NCBI GenBank assembly: GCA_050015075.1
Contig: JBEKCB010000003.1
Coordinates: forward strand, 64,001 to 128,000
Direction of reading: 5' to 3'
Source: Candidatus Brocadiia bacterium
GTDB taxonomy: Bacteria > Planctomycetota > Brocadiia > CAIUPP01
Length of the DNA: 64,000 nucleotides
Shown here piece by piece: positions 2,406 to 50,469 of this stretch. A program made the translations under genes and the position numbers. The notes under the pieces were generated by a model. The model was not told the origin of the DNA, searched no databases, and worked only from the letters and a program-made list of their open reading frames with translations. The first letter of the stretch is position 1, and each line of letters begins with the position of its first letter.

Positions 2406-5400
2406 CTACTTCGCCGTCGTTCCGGCCGCCTGAGGCGGGATGACCGGCTCCGCCGCGCCGAAGACGTAGGCGCAGAAATCATCCCAGGAGAACCGCAGGT
2501 CCTCCTCGGCGCTTGAGGGGCTGCCGTGCACCAGTTTCTCGAGGCTTTCGATGAGCCCGGAAGCCTGGCCCGTGAAGTTCGCCTCGCCGGTAGCCGCGTG
2601 CAGGTCGCGCAGCAGGCCGATCGAGCGGAGATCCTGCGCCGGGGCGGCTTTCAGCCTTGCGCCGAGGTCGTGCAGATACGCGGCTACGCGCGCGTCGCCG
2701 GTGGCGCGCAGATAGTCGCGCAATCCCGGAATCCACTGGCCGGTCTCCTGGGGATCCTCGGGCATGCGGAACAGGTAATCGGCACACTCGCCCGCGCGCT
2801 CGACCAGCACGGGGTCGTACCTCAGCGAAAGGAGTTCCACGAGGTTGTCCAGATACGCCATACCGTCGGCGCCGCAGGTGGCGGGCCCGTAGCTCTTCGC
2901 CGCCTCCGCCCAGAGGAGCGCGGCGTCGCGGGCGACGAGGTCGCCGCTGAGGTAGTATGCCAGCAGCGGCCCGAGAAGGCGCGCGTGGCGGTCGCTGACG
3001 CAGCAGGTGCTCTGCCAGTGCACGGGAGTCTTGTAATCCCCGAAGGCGCCGGCGATCTTGCGCCGGCGCGGATCGGCCAGCGCGGCGAGCGACGGCGTGG
3101 AATCATTGCACAGGTCCGTCGCGAGCACGTGCCGGAGGTTCCTCTGGGCGGCGATGAAGATGTCCGGCCGGCCGGTCTGCAGATAAAGCAGCCAGAGCGC
3201 GCCGGGCAGGTCTTCGCTGGCGCCCATCCAGTAGTTGCGCAGGCCCCAGCGTTGCTCCTCCGGCAGCCAATGGCGGCGCACGTCCATGAAGTTGAAGTCG
3301 CCGTCGGCGGGCGAGCGGTTCTCCATGGCGAGCAGGCGCGTGAGCATCGTGGCGGCGCGCTCGGTGCGCGACGGAGACAACATTTCCTGCAGCACGCCCG
3401 ACACGGCCAGGCTTTGGGCGTCCTGCACGGCGCAGGGGCACAGCTCGAAGGCGCGGGCGATCCCGCTGACCTCAAGCGGGTCCAGCGGACCCTTCACGAA
3501 CGTGTAGAGCATGTCGTAGGTCAACGCGATGCCGGCGGGATCGGAAACATCCATATTGCGGACCGCGTCGAAATCAAAAAGCCCGTTGCGGTCTTTCAAG
3601 CCGGAGGCGTAGGCGGCCGGCACACTCAGGTCCAGCAGGCACCCCGTCGTGGCGAAGCCGAGCTCGCCGACCGTCCTGCGGTCCACGTCCACCTTCAGGC
3701 CGCGCAGTCTTTCGTCTCCGTGGGGCGGCCAGAAATGGACGATGACGCGGCTTTCCGGCGTCACCTCGATTTCCTTCGGGTGGAGTTCGTCCATATCGCG
3801 CAGGTCCAAGGCGAAGCCGCGGTCCGGCGCGACTCCGGCGGCCCAGTTCTGCGCGTGGGCCGGATGGAGGTCCACCGTCGGCGGCTGCGTGAGGTTCCGA
3901 AGGAGAATGGTGTCCGGCGTGAGCTTCTGCAGATAGACCGCGCCGGTCTCCCGGATGGACTTGCGGAAAATCTCCGGGGTTCCGAAGACGGCATCGAAGC
4001 CGGTGTGGAAGTCCATGCGCTCCGTGATGCCGATGTCGCTCGGCTGACTGTGCCAGGTGCGCTCATTGAAGATGAAACTGCACTGCACGCGAAGAAACGG
4101 CTGTCCCAGGTACGCCGTAATGCGCAGCGAGCAGCGCCCGACGTCCTTCGTCCCGGGCCGGTCGGCGGCCAGGAGCCGGCCTTCCACGCGCAGCACCAGG
4201 CGCAGCTCGTTGTACTCTTCCAGTTCCACCCGTACCTTCGGATCATTGGCCAGGCGGTACACGGTGCCGTACGAATCCACCAGGTACGGGCCGGAGCCGC
4301 CGACCTCGGAGTTCAGAATCTGCCCGTTCGAGCCATAGTGGCCGTTGCCCGTCACGTCCACCCAGGTGTTTTCGATGCCGGAGAAGTGCTTATAGTTGAC
4401 GTTGAAGTACAGCGCGCCGGTGTTCACCCACCAGGCGTCGCCCGTGTCCGTGACCCAGGCGTCGGCGACCGCGTCGGAGCGCATGCCTTCGATGCTCCGG
4501 GTGAAGCCCCTGATGGCCGCGGTGGTCACCTCCGGCCCGTACTCGAGCGTGTAACGCTCGCCGCCCTTGCGCGCGATGTTGGCGCGGAAATCCAGCCCCA
4601 GCCAGCGGATGCTGCCGTCGGTCGGCCAGCGGGCGCGCACCTGCGCGCAACAGGGGACTTCATCGCCGTCCGGTCCGAGCAACCGGACGTTGCCCGGCGA
4701 ATAGATCGCTCCCATGGGAAGCGCCACGCCCGCGGTCATGGGCCATGAAGCGGCGGCTTTTGCTTTGACCGGAAGAGGCTGGACGAGGACGTTGAGCTTG
4801 CCGGCCCGTCGCGGATTCGCCGGAGCCGCAGGCTTCTTCACGGCGGCTTCCGCGCGTTCCAGGACTGTCCCTTCCTTGTCCAGCAGGTCCGCATGGAGCG
4901 CGAAATCGCCCGGCGGGAGACCGGCGACGTTCAGGACGAGGCTGACGCGCTCTCCACGGACGGGGAAGACCGCCGGAGTCGGGACGAATTTTTCCTGCGC
5001 CTCGTCGTTCGCCTCCAGGCGGACCCGCAGGTTGGTTTTGGCCAGGTCCGTGGAGCCCGGCTCGATGCGCACGACGGCGCGGAGCGTCTTATCGGGCGCG
5101 CCGACGGCCGCGTCCAGCACATAGAGCGTCAGGCGCGGAGCGACGACCTTCTGGTCGTACGCGGCGCGCTCCCCGAAAAATAACGTGCCCCAGACGGCGG
5201 GATTCGCGCGGTTGCCCATCGTGCTCGCCCAGGAGCAGCGCTCGCCGGTGACGGCGATATCGCGGCAGAAATTGACCCTCCACGACGCGCCCCGCGGCAG
5301 CTCCTTCACGCCGAGGCTCGCGAGCGGAATCGCCAGTTCGGCGTTCCAGCCTTCCGCCGTGCGCGAAGTCTGCACATCCCAGTCCGGCGACCATTGGACG

Positions 5401-8981: not shown

Positions 8982-9000
8982 TCCTCTCAGTCCAGGTTGC

Positions 9001-10377
9001 TCACTCGTAGCGCAGCGCGTCAATCGGATCGAGGCGCGAGGCTCTCCACGCCGGGTAGAACCCGAAGGAGACGCCGACGCTGACGGACACGAAAACCGCC
9101 GCGATGATTGCGGCGACGGAGAGTTCGGTCGGCCAGTGCAGGAGCTTGGTCACCATGTACGAACTGCCCAATCCCATCCCGATGCCGACCAGGCCGCCGC
9201 TGAAGCACAGGAGGATCGCCTCGGTGAGGAACTGCCAGAGGATATCGCGCGGGCGGGCGCCGACGGCCATGCGCAGGCCGATCTCGCGGGTTCGCTCGGT
9301 GACGGAGACCAGCATGATATTCATGATCCCCACGCCGCCCACGACGAGCGAAATCAGCGCCACGCACAACAGCAGCGTGCCCATCAGCGTGGTCGTGGAG
9401 CTCAGTGCCTTGGTGATCTCGGTCATGTCGCGGATTCGGAAATCGTCCGGGTCGTCCATCTTGACGCGGTGCCGCTCGCGCAGGAGGCCGGTGATCTGGC
9501 TGATCGCCTGCGGTATGGCGTCCGAGCTCTGGGCCGCGACCAGGATCTGGCTCAGATTGATGAAGCGCACGGACAGGGGCGTGTCGGCGGCCTCCGAGGC
9601 CGAGGGCGCCGGGTACAGCGCGTCGGTCTCCACGCCGGCCGAGGTCGGGTAGATCTGGTCGAGCGTGCTGGTGGTGGTGATCGTGGTCGTCACGGTCGGG
9701 GCGTGGCTGGCGTTCGCGCCGGTCACGCGGAACTTGATCGAGGTCCAGGGCGCCAGCAGGATGTCGTCCTGGTCCCAGCCCATCATGTTGGCGCCCTTTT
9801 TCGAGAGGACGCCGACGACTTTGAACAAGACCGGTCCCACGCGGATCTCTTTGCCCACGGGCGACTGGTCCTGGAAGAGTTCGTGCACGAGCGTCTGCCC
9901 GACCAGGCAGACCTCGGCGGCGTTGCGGACGTCGGCGTCAGTGAAGCATTCGCCCTCGGACAGGTGCGACCAGTTGCGCACTTGGAGGAATTCGGGCGTA
10001 GTGCCGTACATCTGCTGCGGCTGCCAGTTCTGGTTGCCGTAAATGATCTGCGCGCCGGCCCAGACGATCGGCGCGGCGACGGTGATCGCGGGACACTCGC
10101 GGGCGATGGCATCGCAGTCGCCGGGCGTGAGGTTCATCGAGCTGCCGGCGCCCTGCCGGATGCCGGCGACGTTGGGCTGGCCGGGCATAACCAGCAGCGT
10201 GTTGGCGCCCATGTTCTCGATGATCTTCTTCATGGAGCTCGAGGAGCCCTTGCCGATCTCGACCATCGTGATCACCGCGGCGATGCCGATGACGATGCCG
10301 AGCGTCGTCAGCGCCGCGCGCATGATATTGCGGCTCAGGGCCTTGGTGGCCGTCCGGAAGGTATGTTGATGCCTCAT
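9001..10377 (-). CDS. MacB-type ABC transporter permease
   Basis: LTTLGIVIGIAAV, GGVGIMNIMLVSVTERTREIG and PIDALRYE motifs. Confidence 0.93.
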   Translation of the reverse strand: MRHQHTFRTATKALSRNIMRAALTTLGIVIGIAAVITMVEIGKGSSSSMKKIIENMGANTLLVMPGQPNVAGIRQGAGSSMNLTPGDCDAIARECPAITVAAPIVWAGAQIIYGNQNWQPQQMYGTTPEFLQVRNWSHLSEGECFTDADVRNAAEVCLVGQTLVHELFQDQSPVGKEIRVGPVLFKVVGVLSKKGANMMGWDQDDILLAPWTSIKFRVTGANASHAPTVTTTITTTSTLDQIYPTSAGVETDALYPAPSASEAADTPLSVRFINLSQILVAAQSSDAIPQAISQITGLLRERHRVKMDDPDDFRIRDMTEITKALSSTTTLMGTLLLCVALISLVVGGVGIMNIMLVSVTERTREIGLRMAVGARPRDILWQFLTEAILLCFSGGLVGIGMGLGSSYMVTKLLHWPTELSVAAIIAAVFVSVSVGVSFGFYPAWRASRLDPIDALRYE

Positions 10378-11170: not shown

Positions 11171-12553
11171 CTACCTCTTGCGCGCCGGCAACTGCGGCGT
11201 GAACGGGTTGGTGTTTGCGTTCGTGGCCTGCTGGACGGCCCCCGGCGTGATGTCGCCGGTGATGACCTCGAGGCCTTCATCGATCCCGTCGCCGGTGACC
11301 TCTGTGTTGAGGCCGTCGGTCATGCCCACCTTCACCGAGATCGACTTCACGTACGCGCCGTCAACCACCCAGACCCTCGCGCGCGTCCGGCGCGTGCCGG
11401 ACGCCTTGGCCTGCTGGCCGCTGTCGGCGCCGTCCTTCGACGTCTGCGCCTGCGCGTCGCCGCTGGAGGCGTCCGTCTGGCCCTTGCCGCCAGTGGCGCC
11501 GCGGGCGAACGGGCCCCGCTGCGCGGGCGTCGGCGTCCAGCGCAACGCGGCGTTGGGAACCAACAGGATTTTATCCTTCCGGCCCGTCTCGAACCACGCG
11601 TTGGCGGTGAGATAAGGCAGCAGCTTGCCGTTGCTGTTGTCGGTGGTGACCTCAACGGTATAAGTCACCACGTTCGAGGTCATCGTGGCGTTAAGCCGCA
11701 CCCGGTTCACGGTCCCGTCGAAGGTCTGGTTCGGGAAGGCGTCCACCGTGAACTTGACCGGCTGATTCTCGTAGATGCCGCCGACGTCCGCCTCGTTCAC
11801 CGCCGCCCAGATCTCCAGTTTCGTGAGGTCCTTGGCGATCAGGAACAGGCTCGGCGAACTTAAGCTGGAGACCACCGTCTCGCCGATATTGACGCGCCGG
11901 TCAATGATGGTGCCTTTGACCGGCGAGGTGATCGTGCAGTAGGCCAGGTTGGTCTTGCATTGGTCCACGGCGGCCTTGTCCTGAGCCACGACGGCTTCGG
12001 CCACCTTGATATTGGCGACGTCCTCTTCCACGTTGGCCTTCGCCGTTTCGAAGGTGGCCTTATACTGGTCGTAAGTCGTATCGGCGAGCGCCCCGGTCTT
12101 GGTGTTCCAGAGGGTCTGCGCCCGGTTCCAATCGTTCGTGGCCTGTTCGAGCACCGCCTTCTTCATCTCCAGGTCCGCCTGCGCTTTCGGCACGGCCGCC
12201 TCGGCCTGCTCCAGAATCGCCTGCGCCGAGTCCAGGGCGGCTTGATAGATCTGAGGGTCTATCCTCGCCAGGACCGTGTCCTCCGACACCACCGAATCGT
12301 AGTCCACCGGCTTGCCGTTCACGTCCGTGCCGAAGGAGCGGATGACGCCGGCGACCTGCGCGCCGACGTCCACGACCTCGATCGGCTCGATCGTCCCGGT
12401 CGCCGAGACCGTGGAGACAATGTCGCCGCGCGTGACCGCCGCGAGCCTGAATTTCGCGGTGGTTTCGGCCTCGCGATGGGCATACCAGTACACTCCGGCT
12501 CCAATGCCGCCCAGCACGATTACGACCAGGACGATTATGATCGCGTTTCGCAT
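11171..12553 (-). CDS. MacA-like periplasmic adaptor (membrane fusion protein)
   Basis: N-terminal TM segment, VDVGAQVAG, ITSPVKGTII, coiled-coil hairpin. Confidence 0.92.
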   Translation of the reverse strand: MRNAIIIVLVVIVLGGIGAGVYWYAHREAETTAKFRLAAVTRGDIVSTVSATGTIEPIEVVDVGAQVAGVIRSFGTDVNGKPVDYDSVVSEDTVLARIDPQIYQAALDSAQAILEQAEAAVPKAQADLEMKKAVLEQATNDWNRAQTLWNTKTGALADTTYDQYKATFETAKANVEEDVANIKVAEAVVAQDKAAVDQCKTNLAYCTITSPVKGTIIDRRVNIGETVVSSLSSPSLFLIAKDLTKLEIWAAVNEADVGGIYENQPVKFTVDAFPNQTFDGTVNRVRLNATMTSNVVTYTVEVTTDNSNGKLLPYLTANAWFETGRKDKILLVPNAALRWTPTPAQRGPFARGATGGKGQTDASSGDAQAQTSKDGADSGQQAKASGTRRTRARVWVVDGAYVKSISVKVGMTDGLNTEVTGDGIDEGLEVITGDITPGAVQQATNANTNPFTPQLPARKR

Positions 12554-47428: not shown

Positions 47429-48370
47429 TCAGCCGGCTTCGGGCTCGCGCTCGTGGAGCTTGACGAGGTCCGCGAGGAGTTCCTTCATGTTCGGGTAGCG
47501 GCGCTCCGGCGACTTCGCCATGCAACGCAGGATGATCGGTTCGAGGCCTTCGGGCAGGTCGCGCGCGACCTCGGTCGGCCGGGGCGGCGGATCATGCACG
47601 TGCTTTTGCATCAACTCCGACGCCCGGCGCGCGGCGTGGGCGGGATCGCGCGGGCCGCGCCCCACCGAAAAAGGCAGGCTGCCGGTGAAGATCTCGAACA
47701 GGACCACGCCGAAGGAGTAGATGTCCGCCGCCGGCGCGAGGCGGCGGCCTTCGCACTGTTCAGGCGACATGGTGGTCAGCGTGCCGCTCTTTTCCTCGAA
47801 GGCGATCCCGGCGGGCGCGGTGAAGCCCAGGTCAATCAGCTTCGTCCGGCCGTCCTTGGAGAAGAGGATGTTATCCGAGCAGACGTCCCGGTGAACCAGC
47901 CCGTGCTCGTGGATGATCGCCAGCGCGGAGCCGGCGGCTTGGAGGATCTCCAGCCGATTCCTGCGCAGCCGCGGATCGGCGCAGCCGAGCATGTGCTTGA
48001 GGTTGGCGCCGTCCACGAACTCCTGGACGAGGTACTGGCAGCGCGCCGGATCGTTGCATTCCCATCCGTAGGTGAAGGTCCGCACGATGGGGAAACTCGG
48101 GTCGAAGATCGTCGTGGGCGGAGTCAGCAGGACGCCGACCTCGCCCTCGCAGGGCACGCCGTAGCGTTTCTGCATGCGGCGCGACGTGCGGTCGTATCCG
48201 GGCTTGTAGAGCTTGAGCGCGTACAGGGCCGGGTCCGGCGGCCGGCGCGCCTGGTACACGCAGGCCTTTTCGCCGTCATGCACCGGCCGGATGGGATGGA
48301 ACTCGCGGAAATGCCGCTTTTCCGCGCGCCGCGCCCAGCCGAACCATTCCCGCCAGAATGATTTCGCCAT
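47429..48370 (-). CDS. Hanks-type Ser/Thr protein kinase
   Basis: YALK, HRDVCSDN, LIDLG, MSPEQ and DIYSFG motifs. Confidence 0.88.
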   Translation of the reverse strand: MAKSFWREWFGWARRAEKRHFREFHPIRPVHDGEKACVYQARRPPDPALYALKLYKPGYDRTSRRMQKRYGVPCEGEVGVLLTPPTTIFDPSFPIVRTFTYGWECNDPARCQYLVQEFVDGANLKHMLGCADPRLRRNRLEILQAAGSALAIIHEHGLVHRDVCSDNILFSKDGRTKLIDLGFTAPAGIAFEEKSGTLTTMSPEQCEGRRLAPAADIYSFGVVLFEIFTGSLPFSVGRGPRDPAHAARRASELMQKHVHDPPPRPTEVARDLPEGLEPIILRCMAKSPERRYPNMKELLADLVKLHEREPEAG

Positions 48371-48530: not shown

Positions 48531-48559
48531 TTGACAAGTGGGACTCTGACGGCCAGAAT
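48531..48559 (+). promoter_or_regulatory. Putative sigma70 promoter of the candidate selenoprotein operon
   Basis: TTGACA-N17-CAGAAT. Confidence 0.5.
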
Positions 48560-48605
48560 ACGGTGCCTATTGCCGGCGTCCGTTGCCTTGAGGGAGGAGC
48601 GGAAG

Positions 48606-49388
48606 ATGGCTCTCGGAAGAAATTACGTGCTGGCCATCGTCGCGGTCGCAGGCATTCTGGCGCTCGCGCTGATTGGGGCGGGCGTGCTCGACGTGACGCA
48701 GAAGACCGGCTATGTCAGGATCAACGTCTCCGACAAGAGCGCGGTCTGGCTGGAATTTAAAGGCGCGGAACTGCGCGCCGCTGCGAGCGCGGAGGGGCTG
48801 AAGACCGCAGAGCCGGTCGCGCTGCGCGTGCTGGCCAATCAAGTGGCACAGTCTTCGGAGTTCTCGCTCCCGATCCCGTCCGATCAGCTTCCCAAAGGGA
48901 TCAGCGCCGTCAAGGGGACCTTCACACGGTTTGGGAACAGAGTCCAGGGCCAGTTGGGAATCTGCCGGACGGACGAGCAGAAGTACATCTGGCAATGCGA
49001 CGTCCGGATCGCGTCTTCGACCGGCAATACCGCGGTCGCGGCGAGGACGATGCAGTTGCCCAGCCTGGACAAGATCGCACTGACCGTCAGCGCCACGCCC
49101 TCGAACGGGAAGTTGGGCGTCGGCGTGCGGCTCACGGCGGGCATCAACCAGTTGAGCGGCGTGCGCAAGTATGGAAAGCCCGTGCTGGTGCAGGTCAGCG
49201 TGACGGACGCCTCCGGCAATGAGGTGAGCGCGAGGAAGGGGCCGTTGACCGATTTCGGGTTCTCCTGAGGCGGCGGCGCCTGCTACTCCGTGGGAGTAGA
49301 GAAAGGGACGTATACGTGCGCCGCGACGATGGACGTCGGGCCGTTCGGGTCGGCTGTGAAGGGCGAGACGAAGGTCGTCGTGCCGTAA
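48606..49388 (+). CDS. Candidate selenoprotein: membrane-anchored beta-rich protein, TGA 49266-49268 read as Sec (U-x4-C)
   Basis: GGAGGAG RBS; N-terminal TM segment; frame continues past the TGA as GGGACYSVGVEKGTYTCAATMDVGPFGSAVKGETKVVVP to TAA 49386-49388; SECIS-like hairpin follows the TGA. Confidence 0.72.
49283..49299 (+). promoter_or_regulatory. Putative bacterial SECIS element
   Basis: CTACTCC-GTG-GGAGTAG perfect 7-bp stem with a G-initiated loop, 21 nt after the in-frame TGA. Confidence 0.65.
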
Positions 49389-49433: not shown

Positions 49434-50003
49434 GTGACAGGCGAGCCGATCAGCGAGGCGAGCGCGGGTTGGAGCCGGCGCAACGTGGCCGGCGTCGCGA
49501 TCGCGTTGATCGGGTTCGGGCTGGTCGTATTCGCCGTTGCCTGGTTCATAAACCTGGCCTTGCAGGTATTGCCGGTCCTGCTCCCCGGACTCGAGCAGAA
49601 TTCCAATAAACCTCTGCTCCTGATGCTGTGCGGGAATGCCTTTTTCAGGCTGTTCCTGGGGCTCTGGCTGATCGCGCATCACAGGAAAATCTCCACCCGC
49701 CTTTTCCGCGCCGCGGCGGGCGCGCCGGTGGCCGAGCGGCGGGCCGCGCTGGCTTTCGGGATCAAGGCCTACGCCGTTTACATGGCCGCGTCCGCCGCGA
49801 GCTGGCTGGTCCTTGCAGCGTCAAACGGAATTGGGCAGGCTCTCAGGCTGGCCGGCAGCCGCGATCGGGCGATGCTGTGGTATATGGTGCCGTCTTGCCT
49901 GATGTACCTGGCCGAAATCGTGGCCTGCCTTTACTTTCTGAAGCGCCCCGGATGGCTCGTCTCATTTGCGTATCCGGAAGGAGAACCCGATGAAGATGCG
50001 TGA
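49434..50003 (+). CDS. Four-TM hypothetical membrane protein
   Basis: Hydrophobic helices with an internal two-fold repeat; GTG start. Confidence 0.7.
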   Translation: MTGEPISEASAGWSRRNVAGVAIALIGFGLVVFAVAWFINLALQVLPVLLPGLEQNSNKPLLLMLCGNAFFRLFLGLWLIAHHRKISTRLFRAAAGAPVAERRAALAFGIKAYAVYMAASAASWLVLAASNGIGQALRLAGSRDRAMLWYMVPSCLMYLAEIVACLYFLKRPGWLVSFAYPEGEPDEDA

Positions 50004-50469
50004 CGCCGCCGAAGTGACGTTGAGCATCCTGGGCGTGTCCAGAATCGTTCAGGCCACGATCGAAACGCCGGGCCTGGCCTATGCTTTGTATCTTCGTTTC
50101 GGGTACACGGGGCAACCGGCGTCGTTCACAACAACGCTAATACTGCTGCGCAATTTCGGAGGCTTCGCTGCAAACCTGGTCGTCGGCATTCTTCTCGCGC
50201 TGCTGGCGGGCCGGCTCGCAGACTGGTTGGTGCGGCGCAGCGTTTCGCTGGCCGGAACTGATGTGGACTTGCGGATCGTATCGCCGGAGGGATTCCGATT
50301 CTGCCTCAAGCTCGTCGGAATCTCCCTGCTTATCACGGGCGTGACGACGCTGGTGCAATGGGACTGGCCGCGCGTCATCGCCGGCGCGCTGACGCTGGCG
50401 CCGGCGGTTTACCTGATCCGAGGCGGCGGCTGGCTCACCCGGTTCGCCTGGGGCAAAGCCGGAGCATAA
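49990..50469 (+). CDS. Four-TM hypothetical membrane protein (related to the upstream gene)
   Basis: AAGGAG RBS; overlaps the upstream stop; C-terminus YLIRGGGWLTRFAW resembles YFLKRPGWLVSFAY. Confidence 0.7.
   Translation: MKMRDAAEVTLSILGVSRIVQATIETPGLAYALYLRFGYTGQPASFTTTLILLRNFGGFAANLVVGILLALLAGRLADWLVRRSVSLAGTDVDLRIVSPEGFRFCLKLVGISLLITGVTTLVQWDWPRVIAGALTLAPAVYLIRGGGWLTRFAWGKAGA

Follow-up and report, generated by a model that had tools for sequence, protein, structure and literature searches.

In a 64,000-nucleotide stretch of DNA from a Candidatus Brocadiia bacterium (G000:C3:64001-128000, from an assembly, G000, that is 93.6% complete; the whole stretch is called the window below), positions 48606-49388 probably form one gene, coding for a 260-residue selenoprotein in which UGA codon 221 is decoded as selenocysteine (Sec). 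We put the probability of this reading at roughly 0.88. Comparison with relatives indicates that the UGA is conserved and translated, that the 39-codon tail behind it is part of the protein, and that the gene belongs to a large, apparently undescribed family of exported bacterial selenoproteins. An earlier note on this DNA had proposed a hidden selenoprotein with U221 and C226, matching no selenoprotein family recognised there. The proposal is borne out by relatives that have TGA at position 221 and remain similar beyond it, and no family model was found to match; however, the protein is a member of a large family and not an isolated oddity.

A conserved in-frame UGA followed by a coding tail

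The frame structure described in the earlier note (a 220-codon open reading frame (ORF), TGA, 39 codons, a TAA and a 45-nt gap) was confirmed from the sequence. From an ATG at 48606, the 220-codon frame runs to ...GPLTDFGFS and an in-frame TGA (49266-49268), past which 39 sense codons (GGGACYSVGVEKGTYTCAATMDVGPFGSAVKGETKVVVP) lead up to TAA at 49386-49388, the next ORF starting with a GTG at 49434, 45 nt beyond this TAA. The read-through product has 260 residues, including U221 and C226, and its site reads ...DFGFS-U-GGGACYSVGVEK. The features of the gene are the following.

48531..48559, + strand: promoter-like site, TTGACA, 17 nt spacer, CAGAAT (consensus scan, a pattern match only)
48592..48599, + strand: ribosome-binding site GGGAGGAG, 6 nt before the ATG (from sequence)
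48606..49388, + strand: predicted full coding sequence of the selenoprotein (260 residues, then TAA), codon 221 being UGA for Sec
48621..48683, + strand: N-terminal hydrophobic helix, residues 6-26, signal anchor or signal peptide (helix in the AlphaFold model)
48708..49055, + strand: predicted beta-sandwich domain 1, about residues 35-150, with conserved ELRAA, LPIPADQLP and W129 (alignment and model)
49059..49385, + strand: predicted beta-sandwich domain 2, about residues 152-260, Ig/MG2-like, its last three strands being post-UGA
49266..49268, + strand: UGA codon 221, probably read as selenocysteine (TGA in 34 of 34 distinct homologs)
49281..49283, + strand: TGC codon of Cys226, conserved partner of U221 (alignments)
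49283..49299, + strand: SECIS-like hairpin CUACUCC-GUG-GGAGUAG, beginning 14 nt past the UGA
49386..49388, + strand: predicted true stop TAA (relatives stop at the aligned position with TAA, TAG or TGA)

The evidence that carries the reading comes from relatives. A six-frame search of 61 related genomes with the read-through protein gave 11 matches in four genomes, each with exactly one TGA and aligned to residue 254-260. F217, G218, F219, S220, U221, G223, C226, S228, V229 and V231 are invariant in the resulting alignment, in which the UGA site is the most conserved block of the family; Cys226 is still nearly invariant in a broader alignment (A10). So as not to select for TGA, metagenome contigs were scanned with an alignment that stopped at residue 220. 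Sixteen of the 18 loci found extend past residue 220, and every family copy in them has TGA at the site and a conserved tail of 37-39 residues after it, except for one L053 copy whose tail ends after six codons, probably owing to a frameshift. When GTDB species genomes were scanned with an alignment of the GDLxKFGFT subgroup, five loci were found, all in metagenome-assembled genomes of Armatimonadota (some of them Candidatus Hebobacteria, a class of this phylum), and FGFT-TGA-GGPCYSV... is present in all seven of their copies. Of 301 sampled Armatimonadota genomes, 12 contain a total of 21 profile matches at E <=1.4e-11, again with one TGA in each of the 21. Among 401 sampled Planctomycetota genomes the family is otherwise rare, with strong matches only in G000; two genomes, G275 and G130, match to the C-terminal domain without a stop, and two weak hits with no family motif (G205, E 2.7e-4; G121, E 1e-3) were dropped. 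The distinct sequences compared at the site number 34 (26 + 1 + 7) from Planctomycetota and Armatimonadota, TGA is found in all of them, and reading frame and end point are kept over about 27-86% protein identity and across the two phyla.

The earlier note had asked whether the TGA might be a sequencing error, which would have undone the idea. Contigs of three other peat metagenome runs (X6, X8 and X10) cross the TGA, X6 record 12 and X8 record 16 with no differing letter and X10 in two records (6 and 8); the tail variants listed include a synonymous change at 49310 (ACG to ACT) and a Val to Leu change at 49356 (GTG to CTG). The TGA is not an assembly error, because independent contigs cross it and every relative carries it.

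The tail also varies in the manner of a protein-coding sequence. Pooled over 29 sequences, the ratio of nonsynonymous to synonymous polymorphism (pN/pS) is 0.458 in the tail as against 0.747 in the 60 codons ahead of the UGA, so that constraint at the protein level is stronger in the tail than in those codons. When 1.84 billion representative proteins were searched with a profile, 289 clusters (50% identity level) came out at E <=1e-3, 218 of them at E <=1e-10. Among the best 150 of the 289, 132 are cut at the residue before the UGA (120 end with [FLY][GAS][FY][STGA] and 12 with close variants), five are fragments or frameshifted, and 13 are full length without a stop and align through the tail.

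These full-length homologs are informative about the residue at the Sec position. A few proteins with Cys there, of the kind the earlier note had suggested looking for, do exist, namely P0035 (FGFK-C-DGPC-YTLRVAKGTY) and P0134 from the protein clusters, and L032/L033, which are the 483-residue proteins of G275 and G130 and have FEYS-C-GGV-C in their last domain. P0075 retains the second Cys only, and the remaining full-length homologs are without both residues, having pairs such as W..R, R..R, S..R, E..E and G..I instead. Homologs with Trp, Arg or Gly had been named in the earlier note as an argument against Sec, and W, R, S, E or G is indeed found in some distant full-length homologs. They do not refute the reading, since the partner Cys is lost in them as well, which points to a derived subgroup without the redox pair and not to a codon read as Trp or Arg. 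In these alignments, Sec and its partner Cys are kept together or lost together, replacement of Sec by Cys being rare. As for their spacing, U-x3-C (UGGPC) is usual in the family, and the U-x4-C of the window is a minority form; the remark of the earlier note that it recognised no matching family is in line with the absence of a Pfam or NCBIfam model.

Two side observations belong here. The Ser codon directly before the UGA is TCC, TCA, AGT or AGC among relatives, and in the Brocadiia clade it is AGT in 18 of 26 copies (e.g. L025:2158-2160), as compared with 3.4% of Ser codons genome-wide, an excess that may be a codon-context effect on Sec insertion. In P0038, a metagenome protein of 479 residues that is counted among the 120, the whole two-sandwich unit is present in two tandem copies, the first full length with S..R instead of U..C and the second ending with FGFT, presumably because it is cut at a TGA.

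A SECIS-like hairpin behind the UGA

The hairpin at 49283-49299, which resembles a selenocysteine insertion sequence (SECIS), begins 14 nt past the UGA in the window; genes with the commoner U-x3-C spacing have an 8-bp stem that starts at 10 nt. The hairpin is the predicted minimum-energy fold in five of six representative sequences, and its loop opens with G-U. Over 33 sequences 93.6% of cells are paired; shifting the partner by 1-3 columns lowers this share to 23-67%, and in the two L059 copies a C-G pair is replaced by U-A, a compensatory change. The codons of the 3' arm are unusual for the genome. Its Gly/Arg codon is GGA, AGA or CGA (i.e. NGA) in 26 of 26 sequences and Val is encoded there by GTA (18 sequences) or GTG (seven) but never by GTC; genome-wide, GGA makes up 9.7% of Gly codons, AGA 1.4% and CGA 4.4% of Arg codons, and GTA 1.7% and GTC 51.5% of Val codons. 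In short, rare codons maintain the 3' arm of the hairpin.

Sec machinery and a selenium island

The genes needed for Sec insertion, whose presence the earlier note had wanted checked, are complete, since selA, selB, selC and selD all lie on contig C13 of the same genome and score above curated cut-offs (selA 533 bits, selB 340 bits and selD 365 bits). The tRNA-Sec scores 60.9 bits against Rfam RF01852 and is called tRNA-SeC, anticodon tca, by ARAGORN. On this contig, four tandem paralogs of the window protein (G000:C13:5096-8827) lie between selD (3410-5038) and the tRNA-Sec gene (8999-9092), and the island reads, in order, sensor kinase, SelD-CMD/AhpD-like fusion, the four family copies, tRNA-Sec, two URO-D-family genes, Fer4_5 membrane polyferredoxin, selA, small lipoprotein and selB. 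The window copy is a dispersed paralog of this four-copy array.

The linkage extends to other genomes. Of 23 loci scanned, 13 have a tRNA-Sec gene, which in nine cases follows a family copy at a distance of 49-183 nt. Among Armatimonadota, the genes of locus L057 run selD-CMD, family gene, tRNA-Sec, B12-binding protein and URO-D, and at L058, L059 and L060 a homologous gene pair (HGD-D and BcrAD_BadFG by Pfam in L060), followed by selD, stands near the family genes. At the four loci listed first below, in Planctomycetota as in Armatimonadota, SelD has a C-terminal carboxymuconolactone-decarboxylase (CMD; AhpD-like) domain with a CxxC-type motif. The main components are placed as follows.

G000:C13:3410-5038 (L062): SelD-CMD fusion
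L057:4260-5894: SelD-CMD fusion
L059:4323-5939: SelD-CMD fusion
L060:9381-11012: SelD-CMD fusion
L062 = G000:C13:9873-13115; L057:7048-8666; L060:6948-8954 and 11234-12139: URO-D-family (Mlp/MtaA-like), B12-binding, HGD-D with BcrAD_BadFG, and Fer4_5 genes

Gene clusters with Mlp, corrinoid and double-cubane proteins, often alongside selABCD, have been linked to methyl-selenide salvage in the part of PMC10418091 available to us, and the available part of Haft and Gwadz (bioRxiv 10.1101/2022.07.06.499078) notes the association of SelD with double-cubane proteins. Such surroundings suggest a possible role of the family in extracytoplasmic selenium handling.

The immediate surroundings of the window copy are different in content. 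A Ser/Thr protein kinase gene lies upstream (47429-48370, - strand), divergent from the selenoprotein gene, and two overlapping genes for multi-pass membrane proteins (49434-50003 and 49966-50469) lie directly downstream. The latter are without a match in a Pfam scan and resemble each other only marginally (E 0.035). That they might correspond to the membrane domain fused to some family members (e.g. L060:3080-4066) was considered and rejected, the BLASTP E value being 6.7 or worse.

Predicted structure and export

An AlphaFold model computed with an 80-sequence alignment (pLDDT 92.3, pTM 0.82) is all-beta after an N-terminal helix (residues 6-26), with two tandem beta-sandwiches. The tail is modelled as strands 227-230, 234-243 and 250-259 of the second sandwich, in agreement with the earlier suggestion that it completes an Ig-like sandwich begun upstream of the UGA, and U221 to C226 sit in an exposed loop of lower confidence (block mean 78). 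In Foldseek searches, the whole model had no match in the PDB at E <=0.001 and found only generic tandem FN3/Ig proteins (best E 1.2e-3), and domain 2 found the Ig-like domains of GH2 glucuronidases (E 3.5e-4, template modelling score (TM) 0.50) and the MG4 domain of complement C5 (TM 0.59). At the sequence level, the family profile also hit Armatimonadota genomes weakly in 17 places without a stop, of which 14 belong to open frames of about 1,460-1,700 amino acids, and in the one case examined (L073) the hit lies inside the Pfam MG2 domain of an alpha-2-macroglobulin gene. The Foldseek matches and this MG2 hit together indicate an Ig/MG2-like scaffold and no known redox fold. By sequence, the MG2 domain of Armatimonadota alpha-2-macroglobulin genes (L073:1687-6000, genome G575) is the closest relative of domain 2 that could be detected.

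The N-termini of paralogs and distant members are signal peptides or lipobox-like. Some members stand behind a polytopic membrane domain of about 330 residues (L060:3080-4813; P0105, P0155, P0174 and P0175), which in L060 is without a match in a Pfam scan.

Relation to known families

No Pfam model matches the window protein (the only hit is He_PIG, E 0.51) and neither does any NCBIfam model (release 20, June 2026; only tube_lmo2291, E 0.1). A term look-up in the table of prokaryotic selenoprotein families of a 2026 review, in the portion of PMC13188914 available, returned neither a UxxxC or UxxxxC motif nor a mention of Planctomycetota or Armatimonadota. The accessible parts of PMC12013277 (deep-Sep), PMC5029168 and PMC13326102, which include the BSepDB and ISME J 2016 papers, likewise contain no U-x3-4-C family and no comparable selenoprotein of these phyla, although the supplementary lists of BSepDB and deep-Sep could hold one.

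The closest points of comparison are five. (i) With fdhF of E. coli, the gene shares an in-frame UGA, a hairpin within the coding sequence with a G-U loop starting about 20 nt past the UGA, and a presumed dependence on selA, selB, selC and selD, all found in the window genome; the geometry resembles that of the fdhF SECIS. The family protein, however, is unrelated, exported and all-beta, and its hairpin is short (7-8 bp) and without an Rfam model. (ii) With the MG2 domain of bacterial alpha-2-macroglobulins (PF01835), it shares the beta-sandwich of domain 2 and an envelope location, and the family profile hits Armatimonadota open frames weakly (E 1.9e-7 to 9e-4 per genome). Yet a Pfam search up to E 1 gave no MG2 hit on the window protein (the folds agree at TM 0.5-0.6), the protein has two domains only, without thioester (TED), bait-region or A2M domains, and the loop after the FG(F) strand has U-GGP-C, which is absent from the macroglobulin sequences compared. 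(iii) The thioredoxin-fold selenoproteins with UxxC, CxxU or UGC motifs (DsbA-like and TlpA-like), as far as they are covered by the available part of PMC13188914, are also extracytoplasmic, with a nearby Cys and a possible selenenylsulfide, but the present family is Ig/MG-like, has a spacer of 3-4 instead of two residues, and is almost devoid of Cys homologs. (iv) The type I Mlp methyltransferase clusters, in the available part of PMC10418091, have in common with our islands selD, selC, selA, selB and URO-D-family Mlp-like genes, a likeness extended in the Armatimonadota island by a B12-binding protein and the HGD-D and BcrAD_BadFG pair; the present selenoprotein family is not mentioned in that part of the article, and would be an extra component with an export signal. 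(v) NF041115, the UxxU metal-binding selenoprotein named in the table of PMC13188914, is also exported, found in Planctomycetota and truncated by annotation pipelines, but it has an HMA fold, another motif and two Sec residues, and did not match the window protein in the NCBIfam scan.

Mechanism, function and rival explanations

We propose that SelB carrying Sec-tRNA(Sec) would bind the hairpin at 49283-49299 just past the UGA and insert selenocysteine, after which translation would continue to the TAA. The N-terminal hydrophobic segment would direct the protein through the Sec translocon and keep it anchored (paralogs may be lipid-linked or cleaved), and outside the cytoplasm the chain would fold into its two tandem beta-sandwiches, where U221 and C226, in the FGFS-U-GGGA-C loop of the MG2-like domain, could form a reversible selenenylsulfide.

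The open frame would be unremarkable on its own. TGA is the commonest ordinary stop in this genome, closing 668 of 1160 long frames, a point that can be taken for the Sec reading as well as for an ordinary stop, and 577 of 1379 control frames (42%; frames of at least 200 codons, TGA-ended, with a GC content at third codon positions above 0.8, from the same GC-rich genome) stay open in frame for at least 39 codons past their TGA. The 39-codon open extension alone is not significant, being within chance, and the case was therefore built on the comparison with relatives. Several points weigh against the selenoprotein reading. The folding energy of the hairpin region does not differ significantly from that of shuffled sequences and is unremarkable for GC-rich RNA (z -0.18 for an 81-nt stretch, and -0.18 to -1.97 over six 45-nt stretches, one of the six having a different minimum-energy fold), no two-sided compensation was found in the hairpin within the Brocadiia clade, and an Rfam search of the hairpin region gave no family match. 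The hairpin overlaps the conserved CYSVGV residues, so part of its conservation reflects the protein. The one RNA-library contig (X24; 168 nt, 48989-49156) ends before the UGA and might derive from carried-over DNA. Cys homologs are scarce (only the four named above were found), the fold is unlike any known redox or selenium-binding protein by Foldseek, and the window copy is outside the selenium island, its neighbours being the two unannotated membrane proteins, uvrC and the Ser/Thr kinase. Finally, the functional guess is based solely on gene neighbourhood and the Sec/Cys pair.

The likelihoods given to functions are conditional on the protein being a selenoprotein and together exhaust the possibilities (they sum to 1). 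The one we favour, though at somewhat less than even odds, is the capture or reduction of extracytoplasmic selenium compounds by the selenol/thiol pair, in the service of the adjacent selenium-utilisation genes. Activity as a general periplasmic thiol/selenol oxidoreductase is rather unlikely, and soft-metal binding is doubtful; other roles share the remainder.

Among rival explanations, the one that survives best grants a real selenoprotein and gives it a general extracytoplasmic redox role (disulfide or peroxide reduction, or envelope protein repair) unrelated to selenium acquisition. Bacterial selenoproteins are mostly redox enzymes with a Sec/Cys pair, according to the available parts of PMC13188914 and PMC12013277, the U-x3-4-C motif is in an exposed loop of the model, and the window copy stands apart from the island. 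This explanation is nevertheless unlikely, the fold being Ig/MG2-like and not thioredoxin-like, and the ratio of two Cys forms to 132 truncated forms among the best 150 clusters being unusual for generic redox families; moreover, so close a linkage with selD and selC, found in two phyla, demands something more specific. Binding of a soft metal or metalloid (Hg, Cu, As or Cd) by selenolate and thiolate, in a periplasmic chaperone or sensor, is harder to sustain. Some periplasmic metal chaperones are beta-sandwiches (copper-loaded FetP is a low-ranking Foldseek match, at E 1.2e-2), and Haft and Gwadz (bioRxiv 10.1101/2022.07.06.499078) argue, in the part available, that Sec/Cys motifs can indicate metal binding, but the neighbourhoods examined contain no metal-resistance or metal-transport genes, and the alignments no conserved His or Met ligands beside U and C, which makes this role quite improbable.

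The two remaining rivals deny the Sec codon. If the TGA were the ordinary stop of a 220-residue protein, conservation downstream would come from an RNA element (attenuator or terminator) or from chance, and this would suit the frequency of TGA stops and of open extensions in the genome, the fact that every gene caller ends the protein at FGFS, and the stable hairpin after the stop. We consider it very improbable, because the variation of the tail is mainly synonymous, with a pN/pS below that of the body, frame and end point are kept across two phyla, homologs with Cys or other residues align through the tail, and the tail gives three strands of a confidently modelled sandwich; nor is there a T run after the hairpin or any terminator-like site between 49268 and 49434. 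Reading of the UGA by a near-cognate tRNA (Trp, Cys or Arg) or another local recoding without Sec is the least credible of all, for although low-level UGA read-through occurs in bacteria and W, R or S stands at the aligned position in some distant homologs, selABCD is complete, both phyla have family genes beside selD and tRNA-Sec, the hairpin found at SECIS distance is conserved and has a G-U loop, the partner Cys is invariant with the UGA and lost where it is lost, and inefficient decoding would not fix TGA in 34 of 34 sequences.

Significance

If the selenoprotein reading is right, its implications are of several kinds. The family, of 289 or more clusters at 50% identity, breaks off at one and the same residue in public protein sets and is a case of the systematic mis-annotation of selenoproteins. 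Methods that rely on abundant Cys homologs may miss families without them, as the available part of PMC12013277 has it, and an almost exclusively Sec-containing family may have been overlooked for this very reason. The selenoproteome would gain a new fold, the tandem Ig/MG2-like sandwich, together with a new motif, FGF[STG]-U-GGP-C.

A bolder and more tentative view, which in its full detail we hold to be unlikely, is that the family is the Sec-obligate, exported, MG2/Ig-fold extracytoplasmic arm of a selenium-scavenging island (selD-CMD fusion, family gene or genes, tRNA-Sec, Mlp/corrinoid methyl-selenide demethylases, NapH-like membrane ferredoxin, selA and selB), in which U221 and C226, in the periplasm or at the cell surface, would capture environmental selenium species as Se-Se or Se-S adducts and pass selenide on for uptake. 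If true, this would be a bacterial counterpart of a selenium-carrier protein, at work in selenium-poor peat. In any case, the linkage of the family to selD and tRNA-Sec in two phyla makes it a testable candidate for extracytoplasmic selenium handling in uncultured peat bacteria.

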